Origin: a virus | IMG/VR virus record: IMGVR_UViG_3300036466_000103 | Location: 1-64,000 of that record | DNA: 64,000 bases | Direction: 5' to 3' (one strand) | Part shown: in pieces, positions 2,748 to 63,516 of the stretch | Layout: every line of letters starts with the position of its first letter | Position numbering within the stretch: position 1 is the stretch's first letter | Notes under the pieces: model-generated | What the model was told of the DNA's origin: nothing | Seen by the model: only the letters and a program-made list of their open reading frames with translations | Database searches by the model: none | Position numbers and translations under genes: made by a program

Positions 2748-2775
2748 TACAAACATTTATTAGAGGAATACAAAT

Positions 2776-3222: not shown

Positions 3223-3277
3223 TTTAAGGGGAGTGTAAAAGCTCCCTGTTCAAACCAAATTACATAAGGAAAGAATA

Positions 3278-4375: not shown

Positions 4376-4393
4376 GATTGGTGGTTAACACGA

Positions 4394-4425
4394 GGGCTGG
4401 CGTCAAGCTGGCCCTTTGTTGTTTT
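4394..4425 (+). terminator. rho-independent terminator/attenuator after the capsid gene
   Basis: Stem GGGCTGGC/GCTGGCCC (two G:U pairs), loop GTCAA, then TTTGTTGTTTT. Confidence 0.6.
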
Positions 4426-4436
4426 AGGAGATTGAA

Positions 4437-4847: not shown

Positions 4848-4859
4848 GGAGGCTACACA

Positions 4860-5252: not shown

Positions 5253-5682
5253 TTTCATGGACACCATCAACCAATGGGTTGAAGAAACTGAAGTACGTAT
5301 TGATGACATTCTACAGACAATCGTAATCAAAGTTGGTGAGAGTGTTGTACGTCTTTCCCCTGTAGACACTGGATTGTTTAGAGGAAACTGGCAGATGACC
5401 ATTGATGGTGGTTCATCCTCAAGCTTGCTTCGGTATGACCAGACAGGTGACAGTACGTTAGCTGCCATTTCATCCGTTGCTAACAGCTTCACAGCTGGAC
5501 AAGTGGCCTATATACAAAACCATGTACTGTATGGTGATGATCTTGAGTGGGGTCTGTACAACGGACCTACAGCAAAGGTCACTGATGAAGGTTACAGCCG
5601 ACAAGCTCCAGCAGGTATGGTAAGGGTCACTGAAGGTCAATTCCTAAACATCGTTAATGAGGCTATTAGGCTTAATAGTTAA
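5245..5682 (+). CDS. head-tail joining / tail completion protein, HK97 gp10-like
   Basis: Motif TGLFRGNWQMTIDGG. Its start overlaps the upstream gene. Confidence 0.55.
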   Translation: MANFMDTINQWVEETEVRIDDILQTIVIKVGESVVRLSPVDTGLFRGNWQMTIDGGSSSSLLRYDQTGDSTLAAISSVANSFTAGQVAYIQNHVLYGDDLEWGLYNGPTAKVTDEGYSRQAPAGMVRVTEGQFLNIVNEAIRLNS

Positions 5683-5696
5683 TAAGGAGGACAGTC

Positions 5697-6221
5697 ATGA
5701 GTAATGCAAGAATTAGACGCCTCTTCTTTGACAAGCTTAAAGACGGTATTAGAGAGGTGGATGGAAGCCTTAAGTGGATGGTGATGCAAGACGGTGTTAT
5801 TCACCTCGATTCAAAAGGAGTTGAGATAAACTTCAACACCACACACCTTGCCGTACACCTTATCCCAGCTCCAGCTGAGACAGATACTCTTAAGGGAGAC
5901 CATGTAAGGTACTCTGGAATCTATCAGATTGATGCACGAATACTCCTAGACCCTAAGAAGGATATTAGAGCCGATAGCAACCTTGTCCTTGAGGAAATCA
6001 CAGGCACTCTTCAATCAATCTTTAAGGTTAATCTTAGGCTAGTTGATACGAGTACAGTACATGTCCCAGAGACAGATGAAAACGGAGATATCATCCCTTA
6101 TGAAGATTTTGCTGTTCAAGTGATCAGCCCCATAAAGGTTAGGGAAGCAAGACGTGAAGGGAAAACAAACTGGTGGCATGCTCATTGCTACTTTGATTAT
6201 AGAGCAGATACAAACATTTAA
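5697..6221 (+). CDS. tail terminator-like protein (gpU position)
   Basis: Synteny. RBS AAGGAGG. Confidence 0.45.
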   Translation: MSNARIRRLFFDKLKDGIREVDGSLKWMVMQDGVIHLDSKGVEINFNTTHLAVHLIPAPAETDTLKGDHVRYSGIYQIDARILLDPKKDIRADSNLVLEEITGTLQSIFKVNLRLVDTSTVHVPETDENGDIIPYEDFAVQVISPIKVREARREGKTNWWHAHCYFDYRADTNI

Positions 6222-6238
6222 CTAAGAGGAATACAAAT

Positions 6239-6895
6239 ATGGCCTTTCGCTTGCCTAACGGCTCCACATTCGACTTTGCTGAAGAATATGGTGATGACGT
6301 AACTATCACCAGTATTAGCAATGCAAACCCCGCTGTAGTGTCTGCAACCGCTCACGGCTTTGTTGCTGGTGATGTTGTTGTAATCACCACAGGCTGGGTA
6401 AAACTTACTGGTCGTGCATTCAAGGTTGGTACTGTCACCACTGACACTTTTGTATTGACTAACATTAATACTTTGAGCGTACAGAACTATCCAGCTGGTA
6501 CTTCCGCTGGTACTGCCAAGAAAGTTGAGAAGTGGGTGAACATTCCACAAATCACTGAAGTTGCAAGCTCCGGTGGTGAACAGCAGTTCTACACTTTCGG
6601 CTTCTTGGAAGAAGATGAAGACCGTCAAGTGCCGACCACAAAATCCCCATCTGTGCTCACTCTGACTGTTGCGGATGACCCAAGTCAACCTTTCGTTCCA
6701 GTAGTTGAGGCTGCTGATGAGCTTAAGGAAGAGCGTGTACAACGTCTCAACTTGGTTAACGGTGATATTATCTTGTATAACTCGATTGCAAGTATTACCA
6801 ACACTCCAAGCCTTACTCGTAACAACCTGATGACTCGTACTATCACCCTCGCTCAACAAGGCAGAGTCACACGCTATAAATCTGGCGCTATCTAA
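6239..6895 (+). CDS. major tail tube protein
   Basis: 218 aa, immediately upstream of the G/GT chaperones and the tape measure. A terminator follows. Confidence 0.7.
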   Translation: MAFRLPNGSTFDFAEEYGDDVTITSISNANPAVVSATAHGFVAGDVVVITTGWVKLTGRAFKVGTVTTDTFVLTNINTLSVQNYPAGTSAGTAKKVEKWVNIPQITEVASSGGEQQFYTFGFLEEDEDRQVPTTKSPSVLTLTVADDPSQPFVPVVEAADELKEERVQRLNLVNGDIILYNSIASITNTPSLTRNNLMTRTITLAQQGRVTRYKSGAI

Positions 6896-6952
6896 TTGAC
6901 ACAGATATGACTCTCAAGTGTAAATTGCAATAAACGCACGCAAGTGTACCCA

Positions 6953-6985
6953 CGCCCTTGCCTATTAGCGAGGGCGTTTTTATTT
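6953..6985 (+). terminator. rho-independent terminator after the tube gene
   Basis: 9-bp stem CGCCCTTGC/GCGAGGGCG, loop CTATTA, then TTTTTATTT. Confidence 0.65.
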
Positions 6986-7000
6986 AAGGAGAAAAATACA

Positions 7001-7402
7001 ATGTCGAAATCATTCAAAATTCAATTCAACCCAACATTCAAATCTGCCGTACAAATCCCACGAGTTGGTGGTGATCCTATTGCAGTAACTTTCACTTTCA
7101 AAGTATTGGATCGTAAATCCCTTGCTCGTGTATTTGATGCATGGAAGAAAGAAAACCTTCAACTCATTGAAGACGCAACCACTGCTGATAAAGAAGGAAC
7201 TCCATTCACCCTTGAAGAATGGGCAGAGCGTGAGATTACTCTCCAGATTAAGCAGATTAAAGACGTTGTACTTGGCTGGGGCTTCGATGATGAATTCAAT
7301 GATGAGAATATTGAAGAGCTTTTGAACTCGTCTATCTCCGTCACTGACGCAATCCTTGAGCAATACAACGATGGTTATATCAAGGCCCGCCAGGGAAACT
7401 AA
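7001..7402 (+). CDS. tail assembly chaperone G
   Basis: ATG 7001 follows AAGGAG. The upstream part of ORF 6944 overlaps the terminator. Position is before the tape measure. Confidence 0.8.
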   Translation: MSKSFKIQFNPTFKSAVQIPRVGGDPIAVTFTFKVLDRKSLARVFDAWKKENLQLIEDATTADKEGTPFTLEEWAEREITLQIKQIKDVVLGWGFDDEFNDENIEELLNSSISVTDAILEQYNDGYIKARQGN

Positions 7403-7734
7403 TAAGCGCTGCCAATGCCTTGTATTCCAGTGATGCAGACAAACATCAAGTTGGCTTGTTTGGTCTGACGTTAGAAGAAGTTCCAGTTGAAGAAGTTCAA
7501 ATCTGGGATATTAATTGGGATACATTCAACCTCTTTTACTCCCTTGGTACACAATGGAGACTGAGCGGCATGGGTGGTGCAACTGGATTAGATTATTCTG
7601 TAATTCCCGTGGTTGGTAAGATGTTAGGATTCAAATCCAAGAAAGTAAACGAAATGTTCCCAGACTTAAGAGTGATGGAGAACGAAGCACTCATCACCAT
7701 GGGGGAGAATGTCAAAGATGCCAACGATAGCTGA
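7001..7734 (+). CDS. tail assembly chaperone GT fusion (7001..7399 joined to 7399..7734 by a -1 frameshift)
   Basis: The slippery site plus the open -1 frame, as in the conserved lambda G/GT arrangement. Confidence 0.75.
7393..7399 (+). promoter_or_regulatory. -1 programmed ribosomal frameshift slippery heptamer G GGA AAC
   Basis: An X_XXY_YYZ heptamer in the correct phase, one codon before the G stop (TAA 7400-7402). The -1 frame is open from 7360 to 7734. Confidence 0.8.
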
Positions 7735-10700
7735 GTTACAGATAAAGGTGGATGCTGTCCCTATTGAGAAGGGGACAAAAGCTCTAAATGATTTTGCTGT
7801 AGCTGCTGAGAAAGCTAGTACAGCAACAGATAAGAAACGTGTGTCAGATGAGAGCTTAGCTACAGCTTCTAAGAAAGTGGCTACAGAGGCTGATAACACA
7901 GCTAAGGCTGCTGAGAGACAGAACAAGGAGTTTGAAGCTCTCCTTGGAAAGATTGATCCTATTACAAAGAAGCTCAATGACCTTGCTAAGCAAGAATCCA
8001 CATTGTTCGCCAACAAAGGTAATCTTTCTACAGCAGCGTTTGATTCATACAATGCAAAGATTCAAGAGTCTCTGGAAAAGATACTAGGACTTGGACAGGC
8101 ACAGACAAAAGTTGCTCAGACTTCTACAGATGTTCCAGATCGTCTCCAGAAGATCGCTCAGGCTGCGTACAACGCTGCACAAGGGCAAGAGAACCTCACC
8201 ACTGCCTTACGTGGCGCTAGTGAGGCTGAGCAGGGTCTAGTAAGCTCTGGGGCTGTAGAAGCTTCTAATCAAAGAGCTGACGCTGCACTAAAAGAATACA
8301 ACGCAAAGAGAAATCTCACAGACGCCACGACTGGAGCTGCTACAGCTCAAAGGTCTCAGTCTGATTCTCTGCAAGACCTTCTGACAAAGATTGACCCAGC
8401 AACAAAGAAGCTTAATGAATTAGACCGTCTCCAGAAGGAACTTAGCAAACAACGTGATCTTGGTTTTATTGACAATGACACGTTCACTCGTTACAACAAC
8501 ACTATTGAGCTTAGCAGACAAGCCACTTCCCGATTCAGTGAAGGGTTACAAAACTCAGGCAAGACAGCCAAAGAGACAGCGTTCGCCCTACGTGGTCTTC
8601 CTGCTCAGTTTACAGACATCGTGGTATCCTTGCAAGGTGGACAAGCACCTCTCACTGTTCTGCTACAACAAGGTGGGCAGATCAAGGACATGTTTGGTGG
8701 TATTGCTCCAGCGTTGAGGGCTGTTGGTGGCGCCCTTGTAGCAATGATCACTCCAGTAACCGTTGGTGCTGCTGCCGTTGGTGCACTAGCTGTAGCTGCC
8801 TATAGTGGTTCTCAGGAACTCACAGCATTCAATAGAGCCCTCACCCTAACTAATAACGTTGCGGGTGTTAGTGCAAGTCAGTTTAGTCAGTATCGTGATG
8901 CACTCGATAGTACAGTGACAACATCTGGTAAAGCTGCTGAAGCACTCACCCTAATTGCCGCTGGTGGTAAGGTTGCTGGTGATCAGTTTGTAGCAGTAGC
9001 TGAGTCGGCTGTTCTGTTTGAGAAAGCAACAGGGCAAGCGATCACAGAGACAATTGCTGACTTCAATGCTCTTGGTAAAGACCCTGTAGATGCAGCTATT
9101 CGTCTAGATGAGAAGTACAGATTTCTCACAGCATCTGTCTTAGAACAAGCCAGAGCCCTTGTTGAAGTTGGTAATGAAAGTGATGCTTCTGCACTCCTGC
9201 AAGATAAGCTAGCTGAAGCTACAACCAGTGCTGCAACAAAGGTGATCGAACAAGCAGGCTATATGGAGACAGCCTGGAACAAGGTTAAAGGTGCAATCAC
9301 AGGAACCTGGGATGTTCTTAAAAGTATTGGTCGAGATAACACAACATCTGATAACCTAAAGGACCTTCAAGAAGCCAACCGTCTGATTGAGTTGCAAGTA
9401 CGTGGCTCTCAGAATATACAAACAACCTTCACTGAAGAGCGTCTGGCTAAGGATAAGATCTACCAGCAGAATAAGGTTGCTATCACCCAGCTTGAACAAC
9501 GAATTCAGTACGAGAAGCTGGCTGCCGATCAGCAAAGAGAGACAGAGCAAGCCCGAACTGCCCAGGTAAGCGGGACTAACGCTGCTCTTAAGCTTAATGA
9601 GTCTGGGCTAGATGCAGTTTCAAAAGCTGAGAAAAGACTGAGCGATGTGCGACTACAGAACCAGAAGATTCTTGATGCGTCTAAGGTAACTGGTGATGAT
9701 GTTAGTGCAGAGACAAGAGTAAAGCTCGCACAGAATGAGGCTAAAGCTGTTGAGGATGTTGCTAAGGCTAAAGAGAAAGCTAATAAGACACCAAGCACTC
9801 CAATTGATACTCGTGGTGTAAGTGAGGTAAGAAACAACCTCAAAGAGCTTACAGCAGAATATGATGGTTACTACAAGAAGGTAACAGCTCTTGGTGAGGC
9901 TAACATTGTTTCTGCTGAAGCCACTTACCAATCTCAGAAAGCAATCCTTGAAGCTCAGAAGGATGCTGTATCCCAAGCCTATGATGCTCAAGTACAAGCT
10001 ATCAAAGACTTACAAGGTAACAAGAAGAACTCTGCATCTCAGAATATTTCTTTAGAGAATCAACTGTCTAAAGCTGAGAGTGATAGAGTTGTTGCCTTGG
10101 AGAAGCTTGATACTAAGCAAGAAGAGCTTCAAGCTAAAGAGAAGGGACGCCTTGATAAACGTACAGCCTCCATAAGCGCCTACAAGGCTGCTCTAGACGC
10201 TCAATTAGAGAGTCTTAGTGAGTCTGGCTCTCGTGCTGTTGAGAACGCTGGGAGAGGTGATGCAGCCTCTGTAGTAGCCACTCAGTTGGCTGACAATGAC
10301 AGGTCTTTTGATAAACAACAAAGACAGCTTGCTAAGTCTCTTGGGGAGGGTATGGACCCCACTGAGTACGCCACTAACCTCAAGAATCTGCAAGATGCTC
10401 ATACAGCAATGACAGAGCAAATCTTGCAGAACAACGAAGACCTTGAAGCCTCCAATGCAGACTGGACCAACGGTTTCACTAAGGCGGTTGAGAACGCTGC
10501 TGCTGATGGTCGTAACTTTGCCAAGGCTACTGAGACTGCTGTATCTGGTGCATTTGATAGTATGGGTGATGCTCTTGCAACATTCGTAACTACAGGTAAG
10601 CTAGACTTCAAGTCTTTGGCACTCAGCATCATATCCGACCTTGCTAAGATTGCAGCCCGCACAGCTGCTAGCCAAGCACTCAGCTCTCTGTTTGGTGTTG

Positions 10701-11176
10701 CCTCCTCAGCCTTAGGTGGAGTTAGCACAGGCGTTTCTGCCGCTACAACATCTGGCTTTAGTGAGTATGGACAAATCACTACGCAAGCCAAAGGTGGCGG
10801 CTGGGATGGTGGTAAGCAGTTCTTCGCTCAAGGTGGGACATTTACCAACAGTATTGTATCCGCTGCAACTTCCTTCCCAATATCTGGTGGTAAGACAGGT
10901 GTTATGGGGGAAGCTGGTCCTGAAGCTATTGTTCCTCTTGCTCGTGCTGCTGATGGTAGTTTGGGTGTAAGACAGATTGGTGGAAGTGACTCTAAAGGTG
11001 GAGTTGTAGTTTATGTAACTATCACCGGAGATGGTGCAACCACTGAAACTAGTGACGCTGGTTATCAAGGTTTCGGTAAAGAAATAGGTGATTACATTGA
11101 TAACAGATATAGAACTTTACAGGAAGCTGACTTACGTTCTGGTGGTGTTCTAAACCGTGCTATCAAAGAGACGTGA
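7709..11176 (+). CDS. tape measure protein
   Basis: 1155 aa, Ala/Gln/Lys-rich helical repeats with a central hydrophobic Gly/Ala segment, positioned after G/GT. The start could instead be ATG 7718. Confidence 0.9.
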   Translation: MSKMPTIAELQIKVDAVPIEKGTKALNDFAVAAEKASTATDKKRVSDESLATASKKVATEADNTAKAAERQNKEFEALLGKIDPITKKLNDLAKQESTLFANKGNLSTAAFDSYNAKIQESLEKILGLGQAQTKVAQTSTDVPDRLQKIAQAAYNAAQGQENLTTALRGASEAEQGLVSSGAVEASNQRADAALKEYNAKRNLTDATTGAATAQRSQSDSLQDLLTKIDPATKKLNELDRLQKELSKQRDLGFIDNDTFTRYNNTIELSRQATSRFSEGLQNSGKTAKETAFALRGLPAQFTDIVVSLQGGQAPLTVLLQQGGQIKDMFGGIAPALRAVGGALVAMITPVTVGAAAVGALAVAAYSGSQELTAFNRALTLTNNVAGVSASQFSQYRDALDSTVTTSGKAAEALTLIAAGGKVAGDQFVAVAESAVLFEKATGQAITETIADFNALGKDPVDAAIRLDEKYRFLTASVLEQARALVEVGNESDASALLQDKLAEATTSAATKVIEQAGYMETAWNKVKGAITGTWDVLKSIGRDNTTSDNLKDLQEANRLIELQVRGSQNIQTTFTEERLAKDKIYQQNKVAITQLEQRIQYEKLAADQQRETEQARTAQVSGTNAALKLNESGLDAVSKAEKRLSDVRLQNQKILDASKVTGDDVSAETRVKLAQNEAKAVEDVAKAKEKANKTPSTPIDTRGVSEVRNNLKELTAEYDGYYKKVTALGEANIVSAEATYQSQKAILEAQKDAVSQAYDAQVQAIKDLQGNKKNSASQNISLENQLSKAESDRVVALEKLDTKQEELQAKEKGRLDKRTASISAYKAALDAQLESLSESGSRAVENAGRGDAASVVATQLADNDRSFDKQQRQLAKSLGEGMDPTEYATNLKNLQDAHTAMTEQILQNNEDLEASNADWTNGFTKAVENAAADGRNFAKATETAVSGAFDSMGDALATFVTTGKLDFKSLALSIISDLAKIAARTAASQALSSLFGVASSALGGVSTGVSAATTSGFSEYGQITTQAKGGGWDGGKQFFAQGGTFTNSIVSAATSFPISGGKTGVMGEAGPEAIVPLARAADGSLGVRQIGGSDSKGGVVVYVTITGDGATTETSDAGYQGFGKEIGDYIDNRYRTLQEADLRSGGVLNRAIKET

Positions 11177-11219
11177 TATTGACAAAAAATAATAAAAAGT
11201 AATAAACTGTAAAACTATT

Positions 11220-11249
11220 GGGGAAACTAAGTGTTCCCCATTTTTATTT
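11220..11249 (+). terminator. rho-independent terminator after the tape measure gene
   Basis: Stem GGGGAA/TTCCCC, then ATTTTTATTT. Confidence 0.7.
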
Positions 11250-11262
11250 CTGGAGAGTGTTT

Positions 11263-11610
11263 ATGGCAGTAGAAACTTTTACGTGGAAAGTTGAGAGTGG
11301 TGTGTCCTCTACAATTGACTACAGAGTTGTAGAAACACAGTTTGGTGATGGTTATGCACAGATTAGTTCCGATGGTATTAACACTAAGAACGAGTCTTAC
11401 GGTATTAAAGTTCATGCCCTAAAAGATAAAGCCAAAGTTATTATGGCTTTCTTTGACAGACATAAAGGAGCAAAGAGCTTCTTCTGGACTCCTCCGCTGG
11501 GTGAGCTTGGTTTATACACTTGTAAAGACCCTAAGCCTGCTGATGTTGGTGGTGGACTTTACACAATCAGTGGTACATTCGTTAAGGTGTTTGCAAGTAT
11601 AGGGGTTTAA
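11263..11610 (+). CDS. minor tail protein M-like
   Basis: ATG 11263 with RBS GGAGAG. Position is between the tape measure and the gpL-like gene. Confidence 0.7.
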   Translation: MAVETFTWKVESGVSSTIDYRVVETQFGDGYAQISSDGINTKNESYGIKVHALKDKAKVIMAFFDRHKGAKSFFWTPPLGELGLYTCKDPKPADVGGGLYTISGTFVKVFASIGV

Positions 11611-11611
11611 T

Positions 11612-12352
11612 ATGGCGAGAGTAGATATTCATGAAGTTATTCAAAGCTTAGAGCCTGGCTCAAAAGTAAAGTTAATTGAAGTTGATTGCACTGAGTTTGG
11701 TGGCGACATCTTAAGGTTCCACAACTACGAAGTCCCTCATACAGAGGCTGAGCTACTTGCCTATCAAGCAGCAGGGGTTGAGACAATCCCCAGCAAACCA
11801 ATTCTCTGGAAAGGGGAGGAGTATGAGTGCTGGCCTTATCGAATGGATGGCGTTGAAATGGACGGTACAGGCTCCAGCCCTACACCAAAGCTTCAAGTAG
11901 CCAACATTGATGGCAGTATTAGTACACTCTGTCTTTTACTTCAGAACTTGTTTATGGCTAAGGTTACAGAGACTACAACGTTTGAGCAGTACCTGGATAA
12001 CGGTGATGATGCCGATCCTGATATGTCATTCATTCAAACTTGGTATATCTCACGCAAGATGAGTGAGAATGAAAGGTCTGTAACATTCCAACTGTCATCC
12101 CCTGCTGAATTATCTGGTCAAAAAGTACCAAGACGCCTTATCTACTCCATGTGTCACTGGGCACTTAATGGGGGGTATCGCGGCCCTGATTGTGGTTATA
12201 CAGGTGATGTGTTCTTTACAGACAAAGGTCAACCTACAGATAACCCCGCTGAGGATGTTTGTGGTGGATTATGCCTTGATTGCAAACTAAGGTTTGGTGA
12301 AGAGAATCAACTACCGTTTGGTGGGTTTATTGCTAGTAGCTTGATTAGCTAA
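11612..12352 (+). CDS. minor tail protein L-like
   Basis: gpL position. A C-terminal Cys cluster (CGYTG...CGGLCLDC) recalls the Fe-S site of lambda gpL. Confidence 0.8.
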   Translation: MARVDIHEVIQSLEPGSKVKLIEVDCTEFGGDILRFHNYEVPHTEAELLAYQAAGVETIPSKPILWKGEEYECWPYRMDGVEMDGTGSSPTPKLQVANIDGSISTLCLLLQNLFMAKVTETTTFEQYLDNGDDADPDMSFIQTWYISRKMSENERSVTFQLSSPAELSGQKVPRRLIYSMCHWALNGGYRGPDCGYTGDVFFTDKGQPTDNPAEDVCGGLCLDCKLRFGEENQLPFGGFIASSLIS

Positions 12353-31623: not shown

Positions 31624-33318
31624 GTGGAGAGAATTAAACATGATGTTGTGCACTGCACATCTGACAAGGGCCTACAAGTCTTTTACGATGATGGAAAGAA
31701 CAAGTTTACCGGCTACTGCTTTTCCTGTGCCAGCCGAGGACTTGAGGCTTACGTAGAAGATCCCTATAACGGTAAGGCACCAAAACCCCCAGGGAAAAGA
31801 TCTGAAGATGATGTACAAGAAGAAATCCAAGAAGTTCGAAACCTAAAATCTCCCGCTGAAGAGTATCGAGGCATTCATCCTCAGTATTTCGCAAAGTCTG
31901 GCATTAAGCTGGCTTACAGTGAATATGACGGAAAGACACCCTTTACATTCAATTTCCCCTATACAATCTCAGGAAAGCTGGCAGGCTACAAAGCAATTAT
32001 GCTTGGCAAGAAAGCTATGTGGTCTATCGGGGACATCAAGGGCGCAGACCTGTTCAACTGGGAGATTGCAAAGAAGTCTGGAGTTAAACGTCTCTACGTC
32101 ACTGAGGGTGAATTCGACTCAAGAGCCCTGGAGATGATGCTAGAGTCACATGCAAACAAACGCAAGAGTCAGTACAATAAGTTCGCAGTCACTAGTCTTC
32201 CTCACGGAGTAGGTAGTGCAGTAACCACACTTGGTCGGATGCGCAAAGAGATTGATAAGTTTTTTACTGAGATTGTGCTGGTATTTGATAATGATGAGGC
32301 AGGTAAGAAAGCAGTAAAAGATGTACAAAAGATTATGCCTGATGTTAAAGTTGCTGTTTATCCAACTAATGCTAAAGATGCCAACGAAGCTTTATTGAAA
32401 GGTGATGGTGATTTGTTTGCAGATTTCTGTATTTGGAAAAGTGCAAAACCTGTAAGCGAAGGCGTGGTAAACGTTTCCACTGTCTTGACTCGGGCACTTG
32501 AGCCACCTCAAATGGGGCTTTCTTATCCGTGGCAAGAGCTTACAGATATGGTCTATGGACAACGTTTTTCTGAGGCCACTTGTCTAGGTGCTGGTATCGG
32601 CCTCGGCAAAACTTTGATTGCTCATGAAGTTGGCGCGTGGAATATTACAGAACATAAAGAAAAAGTTTTCATGGTACTTCTTGAAGAAGAGAACGAACAT
32701 ACACTGTGGAACGTGGCAGGCAAGATTGATTCTATTCCGTATCACCGCCCTGAAATTGCCAAAGATAACTGGGAACAGTTTCAAGAGACTGCACGGAGCC
32801 TTGAGGGTAGTTTGTTAATGTGGGAATCTGAGGGTAATGCTGAAAACCGATTTAATATTGAGGAAATTCTCAAAGCAATTCGGTACAATACAATGGAATA
32901 TGGGGTTCGCTTTCATGTGATTGATAACATCACACGGCTTGTAGACCACTTGTCCAGTGGTGAAGCGAATGAATTTATTAATAAATGGTCATCTGAAATT
33001 GCAAACTTGGCATCTGAATTGAAAATCCATATTGATATGTTCAGCCACTTGAATGCACCGAAAGGAAAAGATGCAAGGGACCATGAGTCAGGTGGCGAAG
33101 TGTTGGCATCACAATTTACTGGTAGTCGCGGTATTATGCGTTCTTTCCCTGTGCTAATGGGGTTTGAGCGTAACAAAATGGCAACAGAAGGGCGAGCTTC
33201 TAATTCTTTTATTAGTTGCATTAAAAACCGTAAGTACGGTGGAGAAGGGCGGATTAAGACTCAGTATCAACCTAATGGTCGCCTCATCAGTTACCCATGG
33301 GAGGGTGAACAACTTTGA
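31624..33318 (+). CDS. bifunctional primase-helicase (T7 gp4-like)
   Basis: Zn-finger-like CTSDK..GYCFSC, TOPRIM LYVTEGEFD..VFDNDEAGKKA, Walker A GAGIGLGKT, and HVIDNITRL. The start is uncertain (GTG 31624 after GGAGG, or TTG 31585). Confidence 0.85.
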   Translation: MERIKHDVVHCTSDKGLQVFYDDGKNKFTGYCFSCASRGLEAYVEDPYNGKAPKPPGKRSEDDVQEEIQEVRNLKSPAEEYRGIHPQYFAKSGIKLAYSEYDGKTPFTFNFPYTISGKLAGYKAIMLGKKAMWSIGDIKGADLFNWEIAKKSGVKRLYVTEGEFDSRALEMMLESHANKRKSQYNKFAVTSLPHGVGSAVTTLGRMRKEIDKFFTEIVLVFDNDEAGKKAVKDVQKIMPDVKVAVYPTNAKDANEALLKGDGDLFADFCIWKSAKPVSEGVVNVSTVLTRALEPPQMGLSYPWQELTDMVYGQRFSEATCLGAGIGLGKTLIAHEVGAWNITEHKEKVFMVLLEEENEHTLWNVAGKIDSIPYHRPEIAKDNWEQFQETARSLEGSLLMWESEGNAENRFNIEEILKAIRYNTMEYGVRFHVIDNITRLVDHLSSGEANEFINKWSSEIANLASELKIHIDMFSHLNAPKGKDARDHESGGEVLASQFTGSRGIMRSFPVLMGFERNKMATEGRASNSFISCIKNRKYGGEGRIKTQYQPNGRLISYPWEGEQL

Positions 33319-33941
33319 AAGAGTTTATAAATGATGCCGATTACAAAGTAACAAAGATGGTTGATGGTAAACAAACTATGTGTCCATTCTTCAGGACATG
33401 GAGAAACATGAAAGAGAGGTGTAACAAAGCCAGCAAAAGAAATCCAAGTTATTTGGAATCTGGAGTTATTGACGACTGGTACACTTTCTCCAACTTCAAG
33501 GCTTGGATGGAAGGGCAACCATGGCAAGGTAATGAACTGGACAAGGACATACTAGGCGACGGCAAACTGTATAGTCCTAATACATGTTGTTTTGTACCCA
33601 GTTGGGTGAACTTGCTTTTGGTGCTAAGCAACTCAAGTCGCGGAGAATACCCGGTAGGTGTATCTTATATGAAGCGGCCTTCTGGTATGAGCAGAGAGTT
33701 GGTTAACCCTTACCAATCTTATGTTAAGAGCGGAGATAAGAAAAAGCACCTTGGTATGTTTTCAACAGCAATGCAAGCTCACAAAGCTTGGCAGGCAGAA
33801 AAGATTGTTTTAATGGAAGCTGCCGTGCTAAGGTACTCCGAAGATAGGAGCTTCCAACAGCCTGTATTTGATGCCCTACAATCAAAAGTCCTTGCTTTAC
33901 GACAGGATTTGGTAGAAAATAGGGAGACTGTTTCATTATGA
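33315..33941 (+). CDS. free-standing homing-endonuclease-like protein with an AP2-type C-terminal domain
   Basis: Paralog of 48763..49407 (TW.NM.ERC, F.AWM, LDKD...YSP.TC.F.P, P.GVS). Located between the primase-helicase and polymerase genes. Confidence 0.45.
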   Translation: MKEFINDADYKVTKMVDGKQTMCPFFRTWRNMKERCNKASKRNPSYLESGVIDDWYTFSNFKAWMEGQPWQGNELDKDILGDGKLYSPNTCCFVPSWVNLLLVLSNSSRGEYPVGVSYMKRPSGMSRELVNPYQSYVKSGDKKKHLGMFSTAMQAHKAWQAEKIVLMEAAVLRYSEDRSFQQPVFDALQSKVLALRQDLVENRETVSL

Positions 33942-36193: not shown

Positions 36194-36352
36194 GATGAAT
36201 GCATCTTGTGTGTGAAGGATACACAAAAATTTAAAGATGAGTTTTCTTCTTTAATAAGATCTGCCGTAGAAAAGGTAAATGTAGATTTCAAGCTTCGAAG
36301 AGCATTGGGCTGTGAGACTCAGTCTGGTAAGCGATATTCAGATATTCACTAG
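36194..36352 (+). CDS. family A DNA polymerase, exon 2 (motif C HDE through the C-terminus)
   Basis: Encodes DECILCVKDTQKF...GKRYSDIH*. The HDE motif spans the junction, and the ending G..Y..IH is typical of a Pol A C-terminus. Confidence 0.8.
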   Translation, partial: DECILCVKDTQKFKDEFSSLIRSAVEKVNVDFKLRRALGCETQSGKRYSDIH

Positions 36353-36362
36353 AGGAGGGAAA

Positions 36363-36899
36363 ATGAGGGAAGTTTGGAAACCGATAATTCTTGATGATAT
36401 TCAAGAGCGTTATGCTGTTAGTAATCTAGGTAAAATTATTGATCTTAAGACTGGTAAATGTTTAGTCTGTCACGATAATGGTGCCGGATATATGAATGTG
36501 GGTTTACAGGGACCAAAGTCAAAGGTCAGGATTCGTTACGTACACAGGTTGGTAGCTATTGCATTTCTTGAGAACCCTGATAAACTACCCCAAGTTGGTC
36601 ATCGTGACCATACAAGATCTAATAACGTTGTCTATAATCTATACTGGACAACACAGAAACAGAATACCCGTGACGGGATTGATGCAGGGAGAATTAATGC
36701 CAATCGGCCAAAGACAAACCGAAAAGTAACAGAAGCTATTATTTGTGAGATTGTTCTGCTGCATAGTCAAGGTAGAGGCATCAACGAAATTGCCGGAATG
36801 CTGGGCTTTCCTCGTACCACCATCTCTAGCGTCTTCAATGGCAGGAGCAATAAAGAGCTGTTTGTGTTTGCAAGCAACGAGCTTAAAAATAATCCTTGA
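36363..36899 (+). CDS. HNH homing endonuclease (NUMOD4-like N-terminus, C-terminal HTH)
   Basis: WKPI..YAVSNLGKI, HRLVAIAF, HRDHTRSNNVVYNLYWTTQKQN, and GINEIAGMLGFPRTTISSV. RBS AGGAGGG. Begins 11 nt after polymerase exon 2. Confidence 0.8.
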   Translation: MREVWKPIILDDIQERYAVSNLGKIIDLKTGKCLVCHDNGAGYMNVGLQGPKSKVRIRYVHRLVAIAFLENPDKLPQVGHRDHTRSNNVVYNLYWTTQKQNTRDGIDAGRINANRPKTNRKVTEAIICEIVLLHSQGRGINEIAGMLGFPRTTISSVFNGRSNKELFVFASNELKNNP

Positions 36900-42440: not shown

Positions 42441-42714
42441 TTATGGTGTTGCACTTGAACTGTTCCAAGAAGAACGCTGGGCACCTGAAGATAACACCCG
42501 TGCTTATTGGTATGAGAGGTGGGGTGGTTCATTTTATTACAGTGAAAATGATGATGTAGCTAATCCTGATGAGTGGGATGGCGGAGGCTATTCATCGGAG
42601 CGTGTACGTAGCCGTGTAGTGAAAGGTGGTTATTTGTTAGTGGATCTTGATGACTCTTGTGGTGGACAGTTTCAAGCAATCTTTTCACTTGATAAGGAAC
42701 TAAAGGATGTCTAA
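42430..42714 (+). CDS. hypothetical protein
   Basis: ORF track entry. Confidence 0.6.
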   Translation: MSCDYGVALELFQEERWAPEDNTRAYWYERWGGSFYYSENDDVANPDEWDGGGYSSERVRSRVVKGGYLLVDLDDSCGGQFQAIFSLDKELKDV

Positions 42715-43303
42715 AGGGGCCTCTAACAAGGAGACTAGAGACAATAAGCTAAAGACCATCTTAGGTGAAATGGGGCATATCTGGAAAACAGAGTCATCCC
42801 TACTCACATACATTCGTGGAGGGATTCGTAGGTCATTGTGGAACCGTTCCCCAATTAAGATTGAATTTATCAACAAGAATAGGTATAAGATTCCAAGTCC
42901 AAACCCTAAGCTTAATGGTCGTCTTGTTTGGGGTGGCCTATGTGCCCTCACAGGGCGTGAGTTTCAGCTTAAAGACATGGACGTAGATCACCGTAAGGGT
43001 GGACACTCCCTTCGCTCCCTAGACGACTTACAGGCGTTCCTGGAGGGTATTGTGCTTGTATCTCTAGACGACTTGCAGTTTGTATCACGAGACGCTCATA
43101 AGATTAAGAGCTACAGCGAGAAGTTTGGTGTTACATTTGAGGAAGCTTCTGTGATCAAACAAGCCATTGAGTTTGAAAAGAAAGGGGTGAAACAAACGGT
43201 TGACTTCCTTAAATCAAATGGGTATACTCCAGCTTCTTCGAAAGACAAACGAAGACTTCAATTGATTGAACATTTTGGAAAGGAGAAGGCTAATGAGAGT
43301 TAA
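42707..43303 (+). CDS. HNH endonuclease-like protein
   Basis: MDVDHRKGGHS...LQFVSRDAHKIKS fits an H-N-H pattern. RBS AAGGA. Confidence 0.55.
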   Translation: MSKGASNKETRDNKLKTILGEMGHIWKTESSLLTYIRGGIRRSLWNRSPIKIEFINKNRYKIPSPNPKLNGRLVWGGLCALTGREFQLKDMDVDHRKGGHSLRSLDDLQAFLEGIVLVSLDDLQFVSRDAHKIKSYSEKFGVTFEEASVIKQAIEFEKKGVKQTVDFLKSNGYTPASSKDKRRLQLIEHFGKEKANES

Positions 43304-44257: not shown

Positions 44258-45031
44258 TTGAAGCATTTGATTATCGCAGATACACAAGTAAAACCGGGGC
44301 ACGATTTGAATTACCTCTCTGCCATTGGGGAGTATATTGCCAGCAAGAAGCCTGATGTAATCGTTCACATTGGAGACCACTTTGATTTTGAAAGCCTGAG
44401 TTCTTACGATAAAGGTAAGAAAAGCTTTGAAGGTCGCAGGGTCAAAGCAGACTTGGATGTTGGTCATGAAGGTATGAAGCTTATTATGGAGCCGATCCAA
44501 CGCCTACAAAATGCCCAAAGAAAGGCCAAGAAGAAGGTCTACGATCCTAAAATGGTCTTCTGCCTAGGTAATCATGAAGCTCGTGCTGATCGGTTTGCAA
44601 ACGATAACCCAGAGTTCACAGGATTCTTAGGCACAGAGCAACTAGGGCTTGAGCAGTATGGTTGGAAAGTATACCCATACCTGCAACCAGCAGTTATTGA
44701 TGGTATCAACTACGTCCACTACCTTGCCAACCCTTTCACAGGTAAACCCTACGGGGGTAGTGCACTTAATCAGCTAAAGAATGTTGGATGCTCTTTTGTA
44801 GTTGGTCATAAACAACTCATCGATTGTGCAATCCGCCCAACGCTGGAAGGTAAGATGCAGATTGGTATTATTAATGGCGCATGTTATCCGTTCGACGAAC
44901 CGTACAAAGGGCATCAGGGGAACTACCACTTCCGTGGTCTGACAATGCTACACGAAGTTAAAGATGGGTTTGGTTGTCCGATGTTTGTTTCACTAGATTT
45001 TATTATGGATAAGTATGGGAAAGAAAACTGA
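44258..45031 (+). CDS. calcineurin-like metallophosphoesterase
   Basis: ADTQVKPGH, HIGDHFD and GNHE motifs. TTG start 7 nt after GGAGG. Confidence 0.7.
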   Translation: MKHLIIADTQVKPGHDLNYLSAIGEYIASKKPDVIVHIGDHFDFESLSSYDKGKKSFEGRRVKADLDVGHEGMKLIMEPIQRLQNAQRKAKKKVYDPKMVFCLGNHEARADRFANDNPEFTGFLGTEQLGLEQYGWKVYPYLQPAVIDGINYVHYLANPFTGKPYGGSALNQLKNVGCSFVVGHKQLIDCAIRPTLEGKMQIGIINGACYPFDEPYKGHQGNYHFRGLTMLHEVKDGFGCPMFVSLDFIMDKYGKEN

Positions 45032-45710
45032 TTTATCAGGACAGACATTTGGACGTTGGACAGTACTCTACAGGTCACAAGAGCGAGCAGCAGATAACAG
45101 AAAGAAATATATTTGTGAATGCTCTTGTGGTACTGTTCGACAAGTAGATGGAAGACGCCTTACAGGAGGTACAAGTAATTCTTGTGGCTGTGCAATGATA
45201 GAGGGTGTTAAAGAAAGGTTCATAACTCACGGTATGACTGGTACACCTACATACGGATCTTGGGCTAATATGAAACAAAGATGCACCAATCCTGAGAATG
45301 AAGAGTGGGAGAATTATGGAGGTCGTGGTATTCAACTGCTAGATGGTTGGGAAGACTTCCAGAGGTTCTTCGAAGATATGGGCGAAGCTCCTGATGGCTT
45401 AAGTGTTGATCGTATTGACGTAAATGGGCACTACTCCAAGGAAAATTGTAGATGGTCTGACAATGGAGTACAGAGTCATGGAAGACGTAAACTTATCTAT
45501 AAAAACACAACTAATCCCTCAAGATTTATTGGGGTTGTGTGGCACAAGTTTTCACAGAAGTGGAGAGTTAAGCTTGTGTTTAAAGGTAAAACAATTATAG
45601 ATAAGAACTTTACAGATGATGTAGAAGCTGCCATACTCTATGACAAATTATCTAAGGAATATTATGGTGACGAACCAAACAAAGAATTGTTGTCTAATAT
45701 TGCGGGGTAA
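45015..45710 (+). CDS. homing-endonuclease-like protein (Cys-rich N-terminus, HNH-like core, AP2 domain)
   Basis: GRWTVL..YICECSCG..SCGC, YGSWANMKQRC, YGGRGI, DRIDVNGHYSKENCRW, and an AP2-like segment FIGVVWHKFSQKWRVKL..AAILYDKLSKEYYG. Confidence 0.55.
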   Translation: MGKKTDLSGQTFGRWTVLYRSQERAADNRKKYICECSCGTVRQVDGRRLTGGTSNSCGCAMIEGVKERFITHGMTGTPTYGSWANMKQRCTNPENEEWENYGGRGIQLLDGWEDFQRFFEDMGEAPDGLSVDRIDVNGHYSKENCRWSDNGVQSHGRRKLIYKNTTNPSRFIGVVWHKFSQKWRVKLVFKGKTIIDKNFTDDVEAAILYDKLSKEYYGDEPNKELLSNIAG

Positions 45711-47640: not shown

Positions 47641-48321
47641 ATGTTGTCTGAATTTGATCAAGAGTTTATGAGCTTCAACAAAGTACGCCTGATTGGCATC
47701 ACAACTCCAGTAGTTGATTTTATCCCAGACAGCGAAGGAATTATCAGCTACTGTGCACGAGTTTCAAATCCATCGAACCAAGATAACTTTGAAACAGCAG
47801 ACAAGCTACTGGCGTATTGTGTTCGTCAGAATCCTTGGTCTGTATTTGATATGGTTAACCTTGTCGTAGAGATTGAAACACCACGAGATATTGCACGGCA
47901 GATTCTTCGACATTCAAGTATGAAATTTCAAGAATTTAGTCAAAGATATGCAGAAGCACAGGACTTTGTTGTTCGTGAGACACGAATGCAAGATGACAAG
48001 AATCGTCAGAATAGCTTGGAGTGTTCTGACACTGAGATTGCGGCTGAGTGGGAAGAGCGTCAGAAGTTGTTGATTGCTCGTGTTGAACAAGAGTACAAAT
48101 GGGCTATTCGAAACGGTATTGCTAAAGAGTGTGCACGAGTTGTACTTCCTGAAGGTAATACAATGAGCTACCTCTACGCCAACATGACAGTACGTCAGCT
48201 CATTACATATCTCAAGGTACGAGATGATGAGGGTGTCAGCCAGCGGGAGCACGTTGATGTTGCACGTAAACTCCGGGAGGTTACAGTTTGTAAACTTCCA
48301 AGTATTGGAGGTCTTGTATGA
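47641..48321 (+). CDS. thyX: FAD-dependent thymidylate synthase ThyX
   Basis: ThyX signature LRHSSMKFQEFSQRY. RBS AAGGAGAG. Confidence 0.85.
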   Translation: MLSEFDQEFMSFNKVRLIGITTPVVDFIPDSEGIISYCARVSNPSNQDNFETADKLLAYCVRQNPWSVFDMVNLVVEIETPRDIARQILRHSSMKFQEFSQRYAEAQDFVVRETRMQDDKNRQNSLECSDTEIAAEWEERQKLLIARVEQEYKWAIRNGIAKECARVVLPEGNTMSYLYANMTVRQLITYLKVRDDEGVSQREHVDVARKLREVTVCKLPSIGGLV

Positions 48322-48770
48322 GTGAAATGGCAGTAGAAAAGTTTGATCAACCAATGGAGTTCGATCAATACCTTGGTCAACTTGATATGGAAAAGCATCC
48401 ATTGTGGAAAAAAGCTTGGGTTGATCAAGACAAAGAAGCATTCGAACAGATCCTAGAAGACTTGGGTGCTGATATAAGTTACGGCTATGACTTCCGAGTA
48501 TGCCTGCATCGTAGTCGAATGACTAACCAGGTTGAGTATGGTGTTCGTGTTGGATTCAAAGAACGTACAGACAAGTGGTGGACAGCAAACATGCTAAGCG
48601 TAGAAGACCTAGTACGCACTACTCGTGGTAGTATACGAGCAACGGGAATGAAGGAAGCGTTAAATCAAGAAACACCCCTATCTGCATACGTTGAGGATCA
48701 GATGGCTAAATCCATAATGCATGTGGAGAAAAGTGTAGTGAAAGTTGACAGGGTGTGCTTAGATGTTTAA
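48318..48770 (+). CDS. hypothetical protein
   Basis: ATGA overlap with thyX. Confidence 0.65.
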   Translation: MSEMAVEKFDQPMEFDQYLGQLDMEKHPLWKKAWVDQDKEAFEQILEDLGADISYGYDFRVCLHRSRMTNQVEYGVRVGFKERTDKWWTANMLSVEDLVRTTRGSIRATGMKEALNQETPLSAYVEDQMAKSIMHVEKSVVKVDRVCLDV

Positions 48771-49407
48771 TAGAAACAAAAGCCATAGGAAGCTAGTCTA
48801 TGGTGTTGGTATAAATGATGCTGATTATGCTGTAATTTGGAGACCTGACCCAACAAACCGAAAATTACAACAAACTTGCCCTTACTATGAAAAGTGGCGT
48901 GGTATGTTTCAACGGTGCTATTCAGAAATATTCAAAGGGAGGTACCCTACATATAAAGACTGTGAAGTGTGCCCAGAATGGCACCACTTTATGGAGTTTC
49001 GTGCGTGGATGGTAGAACAAGAATGGGAAGGTAAGTCTTTGGATAAAGACTTGAAGTGCAGAGGGAATAAAATTTACAGCCCTGAAACTTGCTTATTTAT
49101 ACCACAAGAGGTTAATACCTTCTTGAATTTACAAGAAAGGCAAAGAGGTGAACTCCCGATAGGAGTAAGTTTACGGGACGGTAAGTTCAGATCAACTATC
49201 CGTCGAGAAGGTAAACAAAGGGCGTTGGGTTACTTTTCTTCTCCAGAAGAGGCACATCGTGAATGGTTAAAAGCTAAGCTGGAGCAGGCTGCTGAGTTAG
49301 CATCTAAGTATACTGGTGAAGTTTCATACAGGATACTGGAGTGGTATGGGTTGACCTGTTCAGTTGTGGACAGTGACTGTAATAAATCGAATGAGGTGAA
49401 AGTATGA
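48763..49407 (+). CDS. free-standing homing-endonuclease-like protein with an AP2-type C-terminal domain
   Basis: Paralog of 33315..33941. Confidence 0.45.
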   Translation: MFNRNKSHRKLVYGVGINDADYAVIWRPDPTNRKLQQTCPYYEKWRGMFQRCYSEIFKGRYPTYKDCEVCPEWHHFMEFRAWMVEQEWEGKSLDKDLKCRGNKIYSPETCLFIPQEVNTFLNLQERQRGELPIGVSLRDGKFRSTIRREGKQRALGYFSSPEEAHREWLKAKLEQAAELASKYTGEVSYRILEWYGLTCSVVDSDCNKSNEVKV

Positions 49408-59599: not shown

Positions 59600-59617
59600 T
59601 AGTTTAATGAGATGACT

Positions 59618-59645
59618 GCCCCGCTAATGCGGGGCTTTCTTTTTG
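59618..59645 (+). terminator. rho-independent terminator ending the long rightward unit
   Basis: Stem GCCCCGC/GCGGGGC, loop TAAT, then TTTCTTTTTG. Confidence 0.8.
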
Positions 59646-59659
59646 TCTGGAATTTGGAT

Positions 59660-59885
59660 TAGATAAGTGTGGCTAAGGCTCTAATGCTTACGTAGATGTA
59701 GCTAAGCCGGTGTGGGGTCAAAATTTCACTGTGAAAAATAAAATTTTAGATTCGGCTGGAAGTGTTTCCTAGATGTAGCTAACACTTCTTAGTGAGCAAG
59801 CGACTATAGATGTGGCTAAGGGTGTTATCAAAACCTACGCCTATAGATGTGGCTAACAACTTAATTTTCCTAGATGTAGCTAAGG
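59660..59885. repeat. array of six direct iterons, consensus TAGATGT(A/G)GCTAA(G)(G)
   Basis: Copies at 59660-78 (variant TAGATAAGTGTGGCTAAGG), 59693-706, 59770-82, 59807-21, 59844-56 and 59871-85. All share one orientation and lie in non-coding DNA. Confidence 0.8.
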
Positions 59886-60058
59886 CTCTCTTAGCGTAGC
59901 GCGGGTACGCCAGGGGCTTGAGAATTGCTCTCATTTACGCCTGAGAATAGGAATCCTTCTCAGATACATCCCTTAACGACTCTCATTCCTATTTAGGTTT
60001 TCTAAGGAAAAAGGTATCGGGCACACTCCCGCCTCCAGATTCCTGACGACGTTTTTGA

Positions 60059-60087
60059 ATACTAAGCCATGTCCTGGCATATGTCAA
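60059..60087 (-). promoter_or_regulatory. leftward sigma70-type promoter pointing into the structured region and iterons
   Basis: On the minus strand: TTGACA-17 nt-TAGTAT. Confidence 0.5.
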
Positions 60088-60367
60088 CAAAAGATTTATC
60101 TAGCAAAAAGCGTGCCAATCTAGAAAGACGCCCACCCTCCCCGTCTTGAATTCCAGTGTCTGGCCTCCCGGCTTTCGTTCCTGCGTGTGAGTAGAATAGC
60201 AGCCGAGCCAGGATATGCAAGCTTTATTTTCTAAGAGAATGCCAAAGAAAAGGCTTGCAAGTTCCCTGGTGAGTGTGGTATTCGCGTGTGTGCGTTCCTT
60301 TATAGGCTGGTAATGTTTACTTCCTGGTGGTCGTCAGCATCCTTTGAAATTCTTTTCAGAAACATGC

Positions 60368-60395
60368 TTGACTCGTTTTCTAATAGGCGTACACT
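60368..60395 (+). promoter_or_regulatory. promoter of the TTTTCTAA-spacer class
   Basis: TTGACT-cgTTTTCTAAtaggcg-TACACT. Confidence 0.55.
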
Positions 60396-60435
60396 TGCCC
60401 ATATCGAAAGCAAACAAGCTAAAGGAACACGAAAA

Positions 60436-60633
60436 ATGGACATTCAGGAACAAGCCCGGATCATCCGCCGTGACGGTATTATTCTTGACCGTTTCGACCG
60501 TGAAAAGGGAGACGGCTTGGTAACTGGTTTGTCCATTGAGTACCAAGGTAATGAGTGGTTTATTCGGATGAAAAACGGCGTAGTATTGTCTTGCCGCAAC
60601 CTTGAAATAGCCTCTAAGGAATTCTTCAAATGA
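60436..60633 (+). CDS. hypothetical protein (65 aa)
   Basis: ATG 60436 follows AAAGGA. The upstream part of ORF 60286 covers the promoter. Confidence 0.55.
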   Translation: MDIQEQARIIRRDGIILDRFDREKGDGLVTGLSIEYQGNEWFIRMKNGVVLSCRNLEIASKEFFK

Positions 60634-63079: not shown

Positions 63080-63232
63080 ATGCCACGGCTGTCAAGTGAT
63101 GAATTGAACCATGTTTTTGATGAAGTCGAGTCTGACATTAAAGAAGACTTGAAAGAGTTGCTTTCCTGGTATGACGACAGTGATTGTGGGGACTGGAGGA
63201 ATGAGTGTCTGTATGATGAGGGTGACTATTAA
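63080..63232 (+). CDS. hypothetical acidic protein (50 aa)
   Basis: RBS GGAGAA. TAATG overlap with the next gene. Not in the ORF track. Confidence 0.45.
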   Translation: MPRLSSDELNHVFDEVESDIKEDLKELLSWYDDSDCGDWRNECLYDEGDY

Positions 63233-63516
63233 TGCCCCTTCCCAACAGCATTACGCCCCTGGTACGAAAGACAGTGAACGAATGGCTAGCCAATACAAGC
63301 CTATCAGAGTTTACAGTTGCTGACGTCCTATCAAGCATTGCAAACAATCCAGGCTTAAAAGAGCTTGTGAGTGCATGCAAGTCAGTCTCTAATGAGCTTG
63401 TAAGGCTTGAGACGGCACATAAGCTCATTAGTCGTATGGGTGTGAGGGGCTTTGACGGTTGTGGCGTAGGGCGCACTCCAAGGGTTTACAGAAAGAATAT
63501 GATATTTCGTAAATAG
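63232..63516 (+). CDS. hypothetical basic protein
   Basis: ORF track entry. Confidence 0.55.
   Translation: MPLPNSITPLVRKTVNEWLANTSLSEFTVADVLSSIANNPGLKELVSACKSVSNELVRLETAHKLISRMGVRGFDGCGVGRTPRVYRKNMIFRK

Follow-up and report, generated by a model that had tools for sequence, protein, structure and literature searches.

What function could six short direct repeats perform when they stand in a gene-free gap just ahead of the early genes of a phage? The repeats in question occupy positions 59660-59885 of a stretch of 64,000 nucleotides (the window, the whole DNA analysed) taken from the IMG/VR virus record IMGVR_UViG_3300036466_000103, and this window comprises about 64 kb of a roughly 100-kb siphophage genome. 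An earlier note, made from the letters alone, had described them as a protein-binding platform of the sort expected near a physical genome end or an origin. Our answer differs in part. We suggest, tentatively, that the six repeats and a second, related array beyond the window are bound by a single lineage-specific protein, and that both borders of a terminal early-gene cassette are marked in this way; we regard this reading as possible rather than probable.

The phage itself can be placed with the help of several other sequences. The phage is also present as a public 84-kb contig (L032, from sequencing run SRR11805501; adding 53231 to an L032 position gives the window position), which reaches 9.5 kb past the window. 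The nearest cultured relatives are the Pseudomonas phages vB_PpS_SYP (107 kb; SYP below) and phiPMW (103 kb), whose major capsid proteins are 81% and 70% identical, respectively, to that of the window phage. Because the capsid is closest to those of these two Pseudomonas phages and the G+C content of the window (0.42-0.48) agrees with the 43.35% given in the SYP paper, the host is probably a Pseudomonas as well. The closest relative, with early proteins 75-80% identical, is known from an IMG/VR contig (L023, with L036 from the same phage), the downstream region of which was obtained by walking along the contig. At the DNA level, megablast against 50,697 phage records found no close relative of the region.

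The repeat array

Five exact copies of TAGATGTRGCTAA and one variant, all on the plus strand, make up the array. The exact copies start at 59693, 59770, 59807, 59844 and 59871, and the start-to-start spacings of the six copies are 33, 77, 37, 37 and 27 bp, just as the earlier note had given them. The extended form that this note had ascribed to the first and last copies is likewise present, with GCTAAGGCTCT directly after both. The array and the terminator in front of it consist of the following elements.

59618..59645, plus strand: intrinsic terminator closing the long rightward operon, a stem of 7 GC pairs and then a T run
59660..59678, plus strand: repeat copy 1, variant TAGATAAGTGTGGCTAAGG, either carrying a 3-nt insertion or matching with 2 mismatches at 59664-76, then GGCTCT
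59693..59705, plus strand: repeat copy 2, TAGATGTAGCTAA, exact
59721..59753, no strand: A+T-rich tract of 33 bp within the 64-bp gap between copies 2 and 3, local minimum 27.5% G+C
59770..59782, plus strand: repeat copy 3, TAGATGTAGCTAA, exact, located in loop and arm of an inverted repeat of 13 nt (59759-59788)
59807..59819, plus strand: repeat copy 4, TAGATGTGGCTAA, exact, of the G subtype, with CTA in front
59844..59856, plus strand: repeat copy 5, TAGATGTGGCTAA, exact, of the G subtype, with CTA in front
59871..59889, plus strand: repeat copy 6, TAGATGTAGCTAA and then GGCTCT, the extended form as in copy 1

The clustering is not a matter of chance composition. When up to two mismatches were allowed, 15 matches were found in the window against 3.5 ± 1.9 in shuffled sequences, and a count of 15 was not reached in any of 100 shuffles. 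The array contains every one of the five exact copies; each match outside it has two mismatches, and as the rest of the 64 kb is free of copies with zero or one mismatch, a dispersed phage-specific promoter motif is ruled out. A repeat finder separates the copies by their flanks into two subtypes, TTTCC/TTACG-TAGATGTAGCTAA (copies 2, 3 and 6) and CTA-TAGATGTGGCTAA (copies 4 and 5), and apart from these flanks the spacers between copies are unrelated. Since the 13-mers are perfect while the spacers are unrelated, selection acts on the sites and not on a duplicated block.

The array region is 100% identical in three independent public assemblies and therefore is not an assembly artefact. It lies in a gene-free gap of 836 bp (59600-60435; the upstream gene ends at 59599), and two independent gene callers, applied to identical DNA, placed no gene over it. 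The plus-strand RNA of the array is not unusual in structure (z = -0.2), and Rfam returned insignificant matches only. The picture drawn earlier, of six same-orientation copies in a non-coding gap behind a real terminator, where a long rightward operon gives way to a block of short early genes rich in promoters, has thus stood up to the shuffles, the gene calls and the inspection of the terminator stem, and a platform for a protein would be the natural reading of it. Clustered direct-repeat protein sites in the control and terminal regions of phages are a known kind of element, and the array belongs to that kind.

A conserved control region with a variable left slot

The control region that holds the array is conserved in its right part, and its left part, filled by the array, is variable. 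The right two-thirds of the gap are homologous in L023, SYP and phiPMW, and homology of the right part extends to PPSC2, KIL1 and phiPsa374, while the left part varies by lineage. To the right of the array the following elements are found.

59920..59989, no strand: three operator-like GAGAAT/(T)TCTCA elements (59920-33, 59942-62 and 59980-89), with counterparts in SYP, phiPMW, PPSC2 and phiPsa374; the conserved right part of the gap begins here
60059..60087, minus strand: leftward sigma-70-like promoter TTGACA-17-TAGTAT, pointing at the array and antisense to the upstream operon
60111..60201, plus strand: conserved non-coding core CGCCCACCCTCCCCGTCTTG...TAGAAT, about 90 nt
60255..60284, plus strand: rightward early promoter P1, TTGCAA-18-TGgTATTCG, which by eye aligns with the TTGACA promoters of relatives and is followed by a conserved transcribed stretch
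60368..60395, plus strand: rightward early promoter P2, TTGACT-16-TACACT
60436..60633, plus strand: first early gene, 65 aa, 75% identity in L023

The core is far better conserved than the flanking genes. It matches non-coding DNA in 42 phage records, at 81-92% identity in 41 of them and at 77.5% in the remaining one, Pectobacterium phage Bobbio. Nearly all of these records are Pseudomonas myoviruses of other genera (Otagovirus, Flaumdravirus), among them PPSC2, phiPsa374 and KIL1-5. Its only annotation is that of a predicted promoter, in the KIL records, and a clear -35 element is lacking; the core may be an early promoter that depends on an activator or an alternative sigma factor, or another conserved cis element. 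The leftward promoter diverges from the early promoters, and comparable ones were read by eye in L023, SYP and phiPMW. Beyond P2 the early block of short, mostly orphan genes extends for about 8.6 kb, to a window-equivalent position of about 69,009.

In PPSC2 and phiPsa374 the parts follow each other in the order direct repeats, TCTCA palindromes, core, two promoters and early genes. Pseudomonas siphoviruses and myoviruses of different genera therefore have in common an early-control module, at 81-92% nucleotide identity, with a variable and lineage-specific left slot, and in that slot a clear direct-repeat array is present in the window phage and in the myoviruses. As an observation apart, the GAGAAT/(T)TCTCA elements are imperfect palindromes that resemble the Fur box core GATAATCATTATC and are kept in siphovirus and myovirus relatives; two copies of ATCATTCTCAT also lie within the 349-bp terminal redundancy of SYP.

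The position of the genome ends

If the array lay at or near a physical genome end, as the earlier note had expected, the relatives that carry the same control region should have their ends beside it. They do not support this expectation. In phiPsa374 direct terminal repeats of 526 bp, identified with PhageTerm, lie at 1-526 and 97762-98287, and the control core lies at 90026, so that the end is located about 7.7 kb downstream, right after the early block, with minus-strand genes converging from the other side. UNO-G1W1 has a terminal repeat of 544 bp, known from nanopore reads, and its core lies 7.4 kb from the start of the record and is oriented toward that start. The SYP record begins and ends with the same 349 bp, and this redundancy lies in a gene-free region beyond the early block (981-11694), at 11-12 kb from the control region. 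How the ends were set is not stated in the SYP paper, and neither it nor the phiPMW paper mentions ends or the repeats described here.

Because these homologous relatives carry their terminal repeats 7-12 kb past the control region, after the early block, the ends of the window phage probably also lie downstream, as a short direct terminal repeat in L032 15780-17640 (window-equivalent about 69.0-70.9 kb), some 10-11 kb from the array. The lesson for annotation is that such arrays should not be taken as genome ends or origins unless the ends have been mapped.

Two further features of the terminal-repeat regions can be added. The direct terminal repeat (DTR) of phiPsa374 contains direct repeats of its own, three copies of CTATATAGTGCAACGGTAAT. 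A palindrome, TTCCACGTGGAA (TTTCACGTGGAA in phiPsa374), is common to the terminal-repeat regions of phiPsa374, SYP and the L023/L036 phage, and was not found in the window phage. The regions concerned, in the pieces taken from phiPsa374 (L084), SYP (L039) and the L036 contig, are these.

L084 8263-8788: phiPsa374 DTR
L039 1-349: SYP
L036 about 15330: L023/L036 phage

A second array and a pair of identical hairpins

The region in which the ends probably lie, L032 15780-17640 (window-equivalent about 69,010-70,870, outside the window), is a gene-free stretch of 1.9 kb between convergent transcription units and is full of short palindromic hairpins (GTCGTAGTTACGAC, ATCGTAGCTACGAT, GGGGAGATAACCTCCCC and others). 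At L032 16943-17080 it contains a second array of about six units of about 21 nt, ACCCTnnAGATGTT(A/G)CTAAC, in the same orientation as the first. The core of these units, AGATGTT(A/G)CTAAC, is nearly that of the first array, and one copy is a single base off the 13-mer of the first array. In the roughly 73.5 kb available the pattern AGATGT..CTAA, with 10 specified bases, occurs five times in the first array, twice in the downstream gene-free region and once in coding sequence, against about 0.14 expected by chance. The second array also lies within a few hundred bp of the place to which, by short anchors, the terminal repeat of SYP maps, and may be inside that repeat or beside it.

The two arrays are accompanied by two identical hairpins. 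The 16-nt hairpin CCCCGCTAATGCGGGG (59619-59634), part of the terminator at 59618, occurs again in the same orientation at L032 17643-17658, 11.25 kb downstream, where it serves the converging minus-strand genes, and it is found nowhere else in the window. A unit of 11.25 kb, consisting of the control region, the early genes and the terminal region, is consequently bracketed by identical hairpins, with the related arrays just inside them. Quite apart from the function of the repeats, the hairpin pair may be a recombination joint at which the whole early/terminal module is swapped between phages.

The motif in relatives and in other sequences

None of the 23 loci fetched by protein similarity before the metagenome scan contains the motif. 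That relatives might lack the repeats had been named in the earlier note as a result that would count against it, and the outcome was divided: L023, SYP and phiPMW have the gap and not the motif, and the myoviruses carry a different family of direct repeats at the same position. In the Otagovirus and Flaumdravirus myoviruses (PPSC2, phiPsa374, KIL1) an array stands, as in the window phage, directly left of the same conserved module, with 3-5 same-orientation copies at a spacing of 18-46 bp. The myovirus type has 2-5 copies of a GGAACYGGACAG...TTTTYACAG family, with three copies of the CCGGACAGGTTTT type and, in the locus L003, five copies. Their motif, GGAACCGGACAGGTTTT / TCCYCGACAGATTTTYACA, is kept across that group, unlike the motif of the window phage, which is private to one phage. 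An array that recurs in position with a sequence specific to each lineage is the pattern that would be expected of sites co-evolving with a cognate DNA-binding protein.

Beyond the relatives, a scan for exact paired motifs found nothing in IMG/VR and nothing in 185,579 bacterial and archaeal species genomes. A relaxed scan of IMG/VR with pairs of a 10-mer gave 40 matches, nearly all of which are coding tandem repeats (GAT GTA GCT AAA, with spacings that are multiples of 3), and therefore short motifs of this kind recur easily in large collections. In 241 million metagenome contigs, searched for two motif copies within 10-40 nt, five stretches were returned. Three of them (L026-L028) were set aside as tandem or coding repeats or as having no proteins in common with the window phage. 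The other two (L024 and L025) belong to the metagenome contig ERZ1034577 NODE-84, a 24.4-kb contig that consists of two tandem copies of a 12.1-kb circular phage-like element. About nine T(A/G)(G/A)ATGTAGCTAAG sites lie in the sole large (about 900 bp) non-coding region of this element, beside an A+T-rich stretch, and a weak, sub-threshold RepL-like protein is encoded. Beyond similarity of a head protein the element has no proteins in common with the window phage, and the match is possibly a coincidence. The element has genes for a large terminase, a portal, an HK97-type capsid, a tail-fibre-like protein and a lysin, and is an unusually small tailed-phage-like or satellite genome.

A possible border protein

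What, then, do the repeats do? We infer that the six copies, with their 13-bp core, dock one sequence-specific protein that would probably be phage-encoded and private to the lineage. On this reading the array would be neither an origin nor a cut site. It would form the inner border of the early block of about 8.6 kb, which is transcribed outward to the probable end of the virion DNA, and the two arrays would be the bookends of a terminal early-gene cassette whose inner border is marked or insulated by the bound protein. The protein might block leftward transcription from the divergent promoter at 60087-60059, hold or pause the DNA at the border during entry, or tether the border to the end region. 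The nearest precedent for such an architecture is phage T5, described further below. The first candidates for the binder are a lineage-specific protein of 213 aa (L032 15137-15778) that adjoins the terminal region on its left and has an HTH-like segment, KVGRPSKE, and a protein of 94 aa at 63232-63516. If one protein does bind both arrays, the phage, with its six clean sites of 13 bp, its second array and its defined cassette, would be a simple model in which to study how a lytic phage sets its first-expressed genes apart, whether by transcription, by DNA entry or by the handling of ends.

Several results weigh against this reading. The link between the two arrays depends on a core of 10-12 nt, of which the second array has two good copies (P roughly 0.004), and in phiPsa374 the repeats of the left part are unrelated to those of the terminal repeat, and thus the same motif at both borders is not a general arrangement. 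The terminal repeat of SYP is mapped to the window phage through one or two short anchors in conflicting order. L023, the closest relative, has about 250 bp of unrelated sequence without a clear repeat family at the equivalent spot, and in SYP and phiPMW the homologous gap contains at most short two-copy matches that are likely due to chance; since a clear array is restricted to the window phage and the myoviruses, the role of an array at this spot is dispensable or replaceable. Even the closest promoter, the leftward one, is about 170 bp or more away from the array, a long distance for a classical operator. Furthermore, a search with Pfam and PHROGs of the flanking, early and uncharacterised proteins and of the larger replication and metabolism ORFs revealed no DNA-binding, initiator, ParB or terminase family, and the flanking and early proteins are all orphans in Pfam. 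Homologues of T5 dmp, A1 and A2 are also missing: tblastn with these proteins and their neighbours against the window, L032, L036 and the SYP, phiPMW and phiPsa374 pieces gave nothing at E<=1 save one chance match of 19 aa.

Weighing the alternatives

Could the array be a replication origin instead? The repeats would then be iterons, the A+T-rich tract an unwinding element, the promoters a means of transcriptional activation and the second array an auxiliary site. The setting is consistent with this, as the repeats flank the tract at 59721-59753 (modest evidence for an unwinding element), divergent promoters lie about 170-400 bp away, the site is intergenic between transcription units, and a second related array exists; clustered direct repeats by an A+T-rich tract with a second cluster kilobases away are likewise found at lambda ori, P4 ori/crr and SPP1 oriL/oriR. 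The similar sites by an A+T-rich stretch in the L024 element, with its RepL-like protein, also speak for it, although that match may be a coincidence among 241 million contigs. However, the replisome is T7-like (primase-helicase, Pol A), and replisomes of that type start from promoters and are not known to need an initiator that binds iterons. The neighbourhood of the array yielded no gene for an initiator, a ParB or a terminase, and a Rep/O/DnaA-like family is absent from the flanking, early and larger uncharacterised proteins, among which the many orphans make a novel initiator conceivable. Unlike the lambda, P4 and SPP1 origins, the array has no cognate initiator gene and is not common to relatives with the same replisome, since L023, SYP and phiPMW lack the motif and L023 lacks evident repeats there. 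Moreover, the core measures 13 bp (15-18 bp with flanks) against about 17-22 bp for iterons, and the spacing of 27-77 bp is irregular and not helically phased. GC skew tracks the direction of transcription and is uninformative on an origin. We consider an origin unlikely, though as an alternative it deserves the most attention. A partition site gains nothing from the proteins either, as no ParA/ParB-type genes were found among about 50 proteins scanned in the window and L032.

Less likely again is a role in packaging or end processing, in which the repeats would bind the small terminase or another end-recognition protein. The downstream array would then lie beside the cut and the first array be a second recognition cluster, or the first array would bound a long T5-like terminal repeat that is collapsed in assemblies. 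The related motif near the mapped place of the SYP terminal repeat speaks for it, as do the direct repeats inside the terminal repeats of relatives (CTATATAGTGCAACGGTAAT in phiPsa374) and the two arrays and two identical hairpins that bracket about 11 kb in direct orientation, like the boundaries of T5 long terminal repeats with their takeover genes. Multiple short repeats bound by an oligomeric DNA-binding protein are also a trait of the lambda cosB R sites, the P1 pac hexamers and SPP1 pacL/pacR, and binding of this kind may be supposed here. Those cosB and pac sites, however, lie within about 200 bp of the cut and usually by the terminase genes, and neither is true of the array; the terminase gene is presumably upstream of the window start (which falls inside the portal gene), tens of kb away. 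In relatives, the mapped or apparent terminal repeats measure only 349-544 bp and stand 7-12 kb off the control region; the motif is missing from relatives whose head genes are similar, and a distance of 10 kb does not suit a single pac or cos site. In T7, short repeats in one orientation are reported to form arrays in the non-coding DNA that separates the last late gene from strong early host-type promoters. These T7 arrays abut a terminal repeat of 160 bp; here the probable repeat, placed by homology with phiPsa374, UNO-G1W1 and SYP, lies about 10.5-11 kb off, past early genes that are transcribed outward and not inward.

A bolder version of the border reading draws on phage T5, in which the terminal 10 kb or so contains pre-early takeover genes, some of them transcribed toward the end, and is bordered by a large untranslated region with direct repeats (nine DRD copies) and palindromes. 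In architecture the window phage would resemble T5, with an early-gene block at the probable terminus and a non-coding repeat region at its inner border, and the position of the array fits an injection stop region of the T5 type if the ends lie where relatives have them. By analogy, the arrays and hairpins might delimit a terminal takeover cassette, and the arrays might be the hold or stop signals of a two-step genome delivery that is T5-like, independently arisen and without A1/A2. About 11 kb beside the DNA end would enter and be expressed first, and a protein bound to TAGATGTRGCTAA would pause further (or leftward transcription-driven) entry until early proteins act. The likeness has its limits: the T5 repeat region is inside a terminal repeat of 10.2 kb and is conserved in all T5-like phages, whereas here the repeat is lineage-specific (L023, SYP, phiPMW and the myoviruses are without it) and relatives have short terminal repeats. 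We know of no two-step entry in this phage group, and we give this version a still smaller chance than a packaging role.

The remaining explanations are lower on the scale. A functionless array, left by decaying local amplification or by module exchange in a hypervariable spacer, would suit the fact that the left part is the least conserved part of the gap among relatives and that L023 has no evident repeats there; five perfect 13-mers amid unrelated spacers are instead the signature of selection on sites and not of a recent block duplication, and a related motif is present at a second locus, so this is quite improbable. Sites for a host factor, in the form of weak DnaA boxes, are very improbable. 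Three of the six copies, read as the reverse complement TTAGCCACA, agree with the 9-mer consensus TTATCCACA (TTWTNCACA) in 8 of the 9 bases, and for the injection stop region of T5 clusters of DnaA boxes have been proposed by Davison; the conservation nevertheless spans 13 positions, four past a DnaA box, the sole variable position is one that is fixed in the DnaA consensus, the other three copies (TTAGCTACA) fit at only 7 of 9, and the paired-motif array occurs in none of the 185,579 species genomes. The least credible proposal is that the locus acts as RNA or is coding, through a leftward transcript with six UUAGCYACAUCUA motifs (a sponge or structured RNA) or through a 51-aa minus-strand ORF at 59779-59934. 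The leftward promoter at 60087-60059 does aim at the array, and a leftward RNA of 403 nt folds somewhat better than shuffles (z = -2.5). This fold signal, however, stems from local palindromes, a match in Rfam is absent, the ORF reads the copies in more than one frame (spacings 27 and 37), only a weak ribosome-binding site can be seen by eye, and the ORF cannot be conserved because relatives lack the array.

Other features of the window

The window opens within the portal gene and continues through a lambda-like head and tail module to the T7-like primase-helicase and Pol A; further rightward are thymidylate synthase, ribonucleotide reductase and many HNH endonucleases, after which small genes follow in a row. 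With its ribonucleotide reductase, T7-like replisome and numerous HNH endonucleases, the gene set resembles that of a lytic phage, and an integrase is absent from the close relative SYP according to the paper on that phage. No tRNA genes were found. The portal reading frame seems to be split at the window start, where two ORFs match consecutive parts of a portal (30-1364 region). At least five HNH endonuclease genes interrupt or separate the genes of replication and nucleotide metabolism, for example between the thymidylate synthase pieces at 47641-48770. The coordinates listed with the split portal and the HNH genes are these.

30-1364
33315-33941
36312-36899
42707-43303
45015-45710
48763-49407

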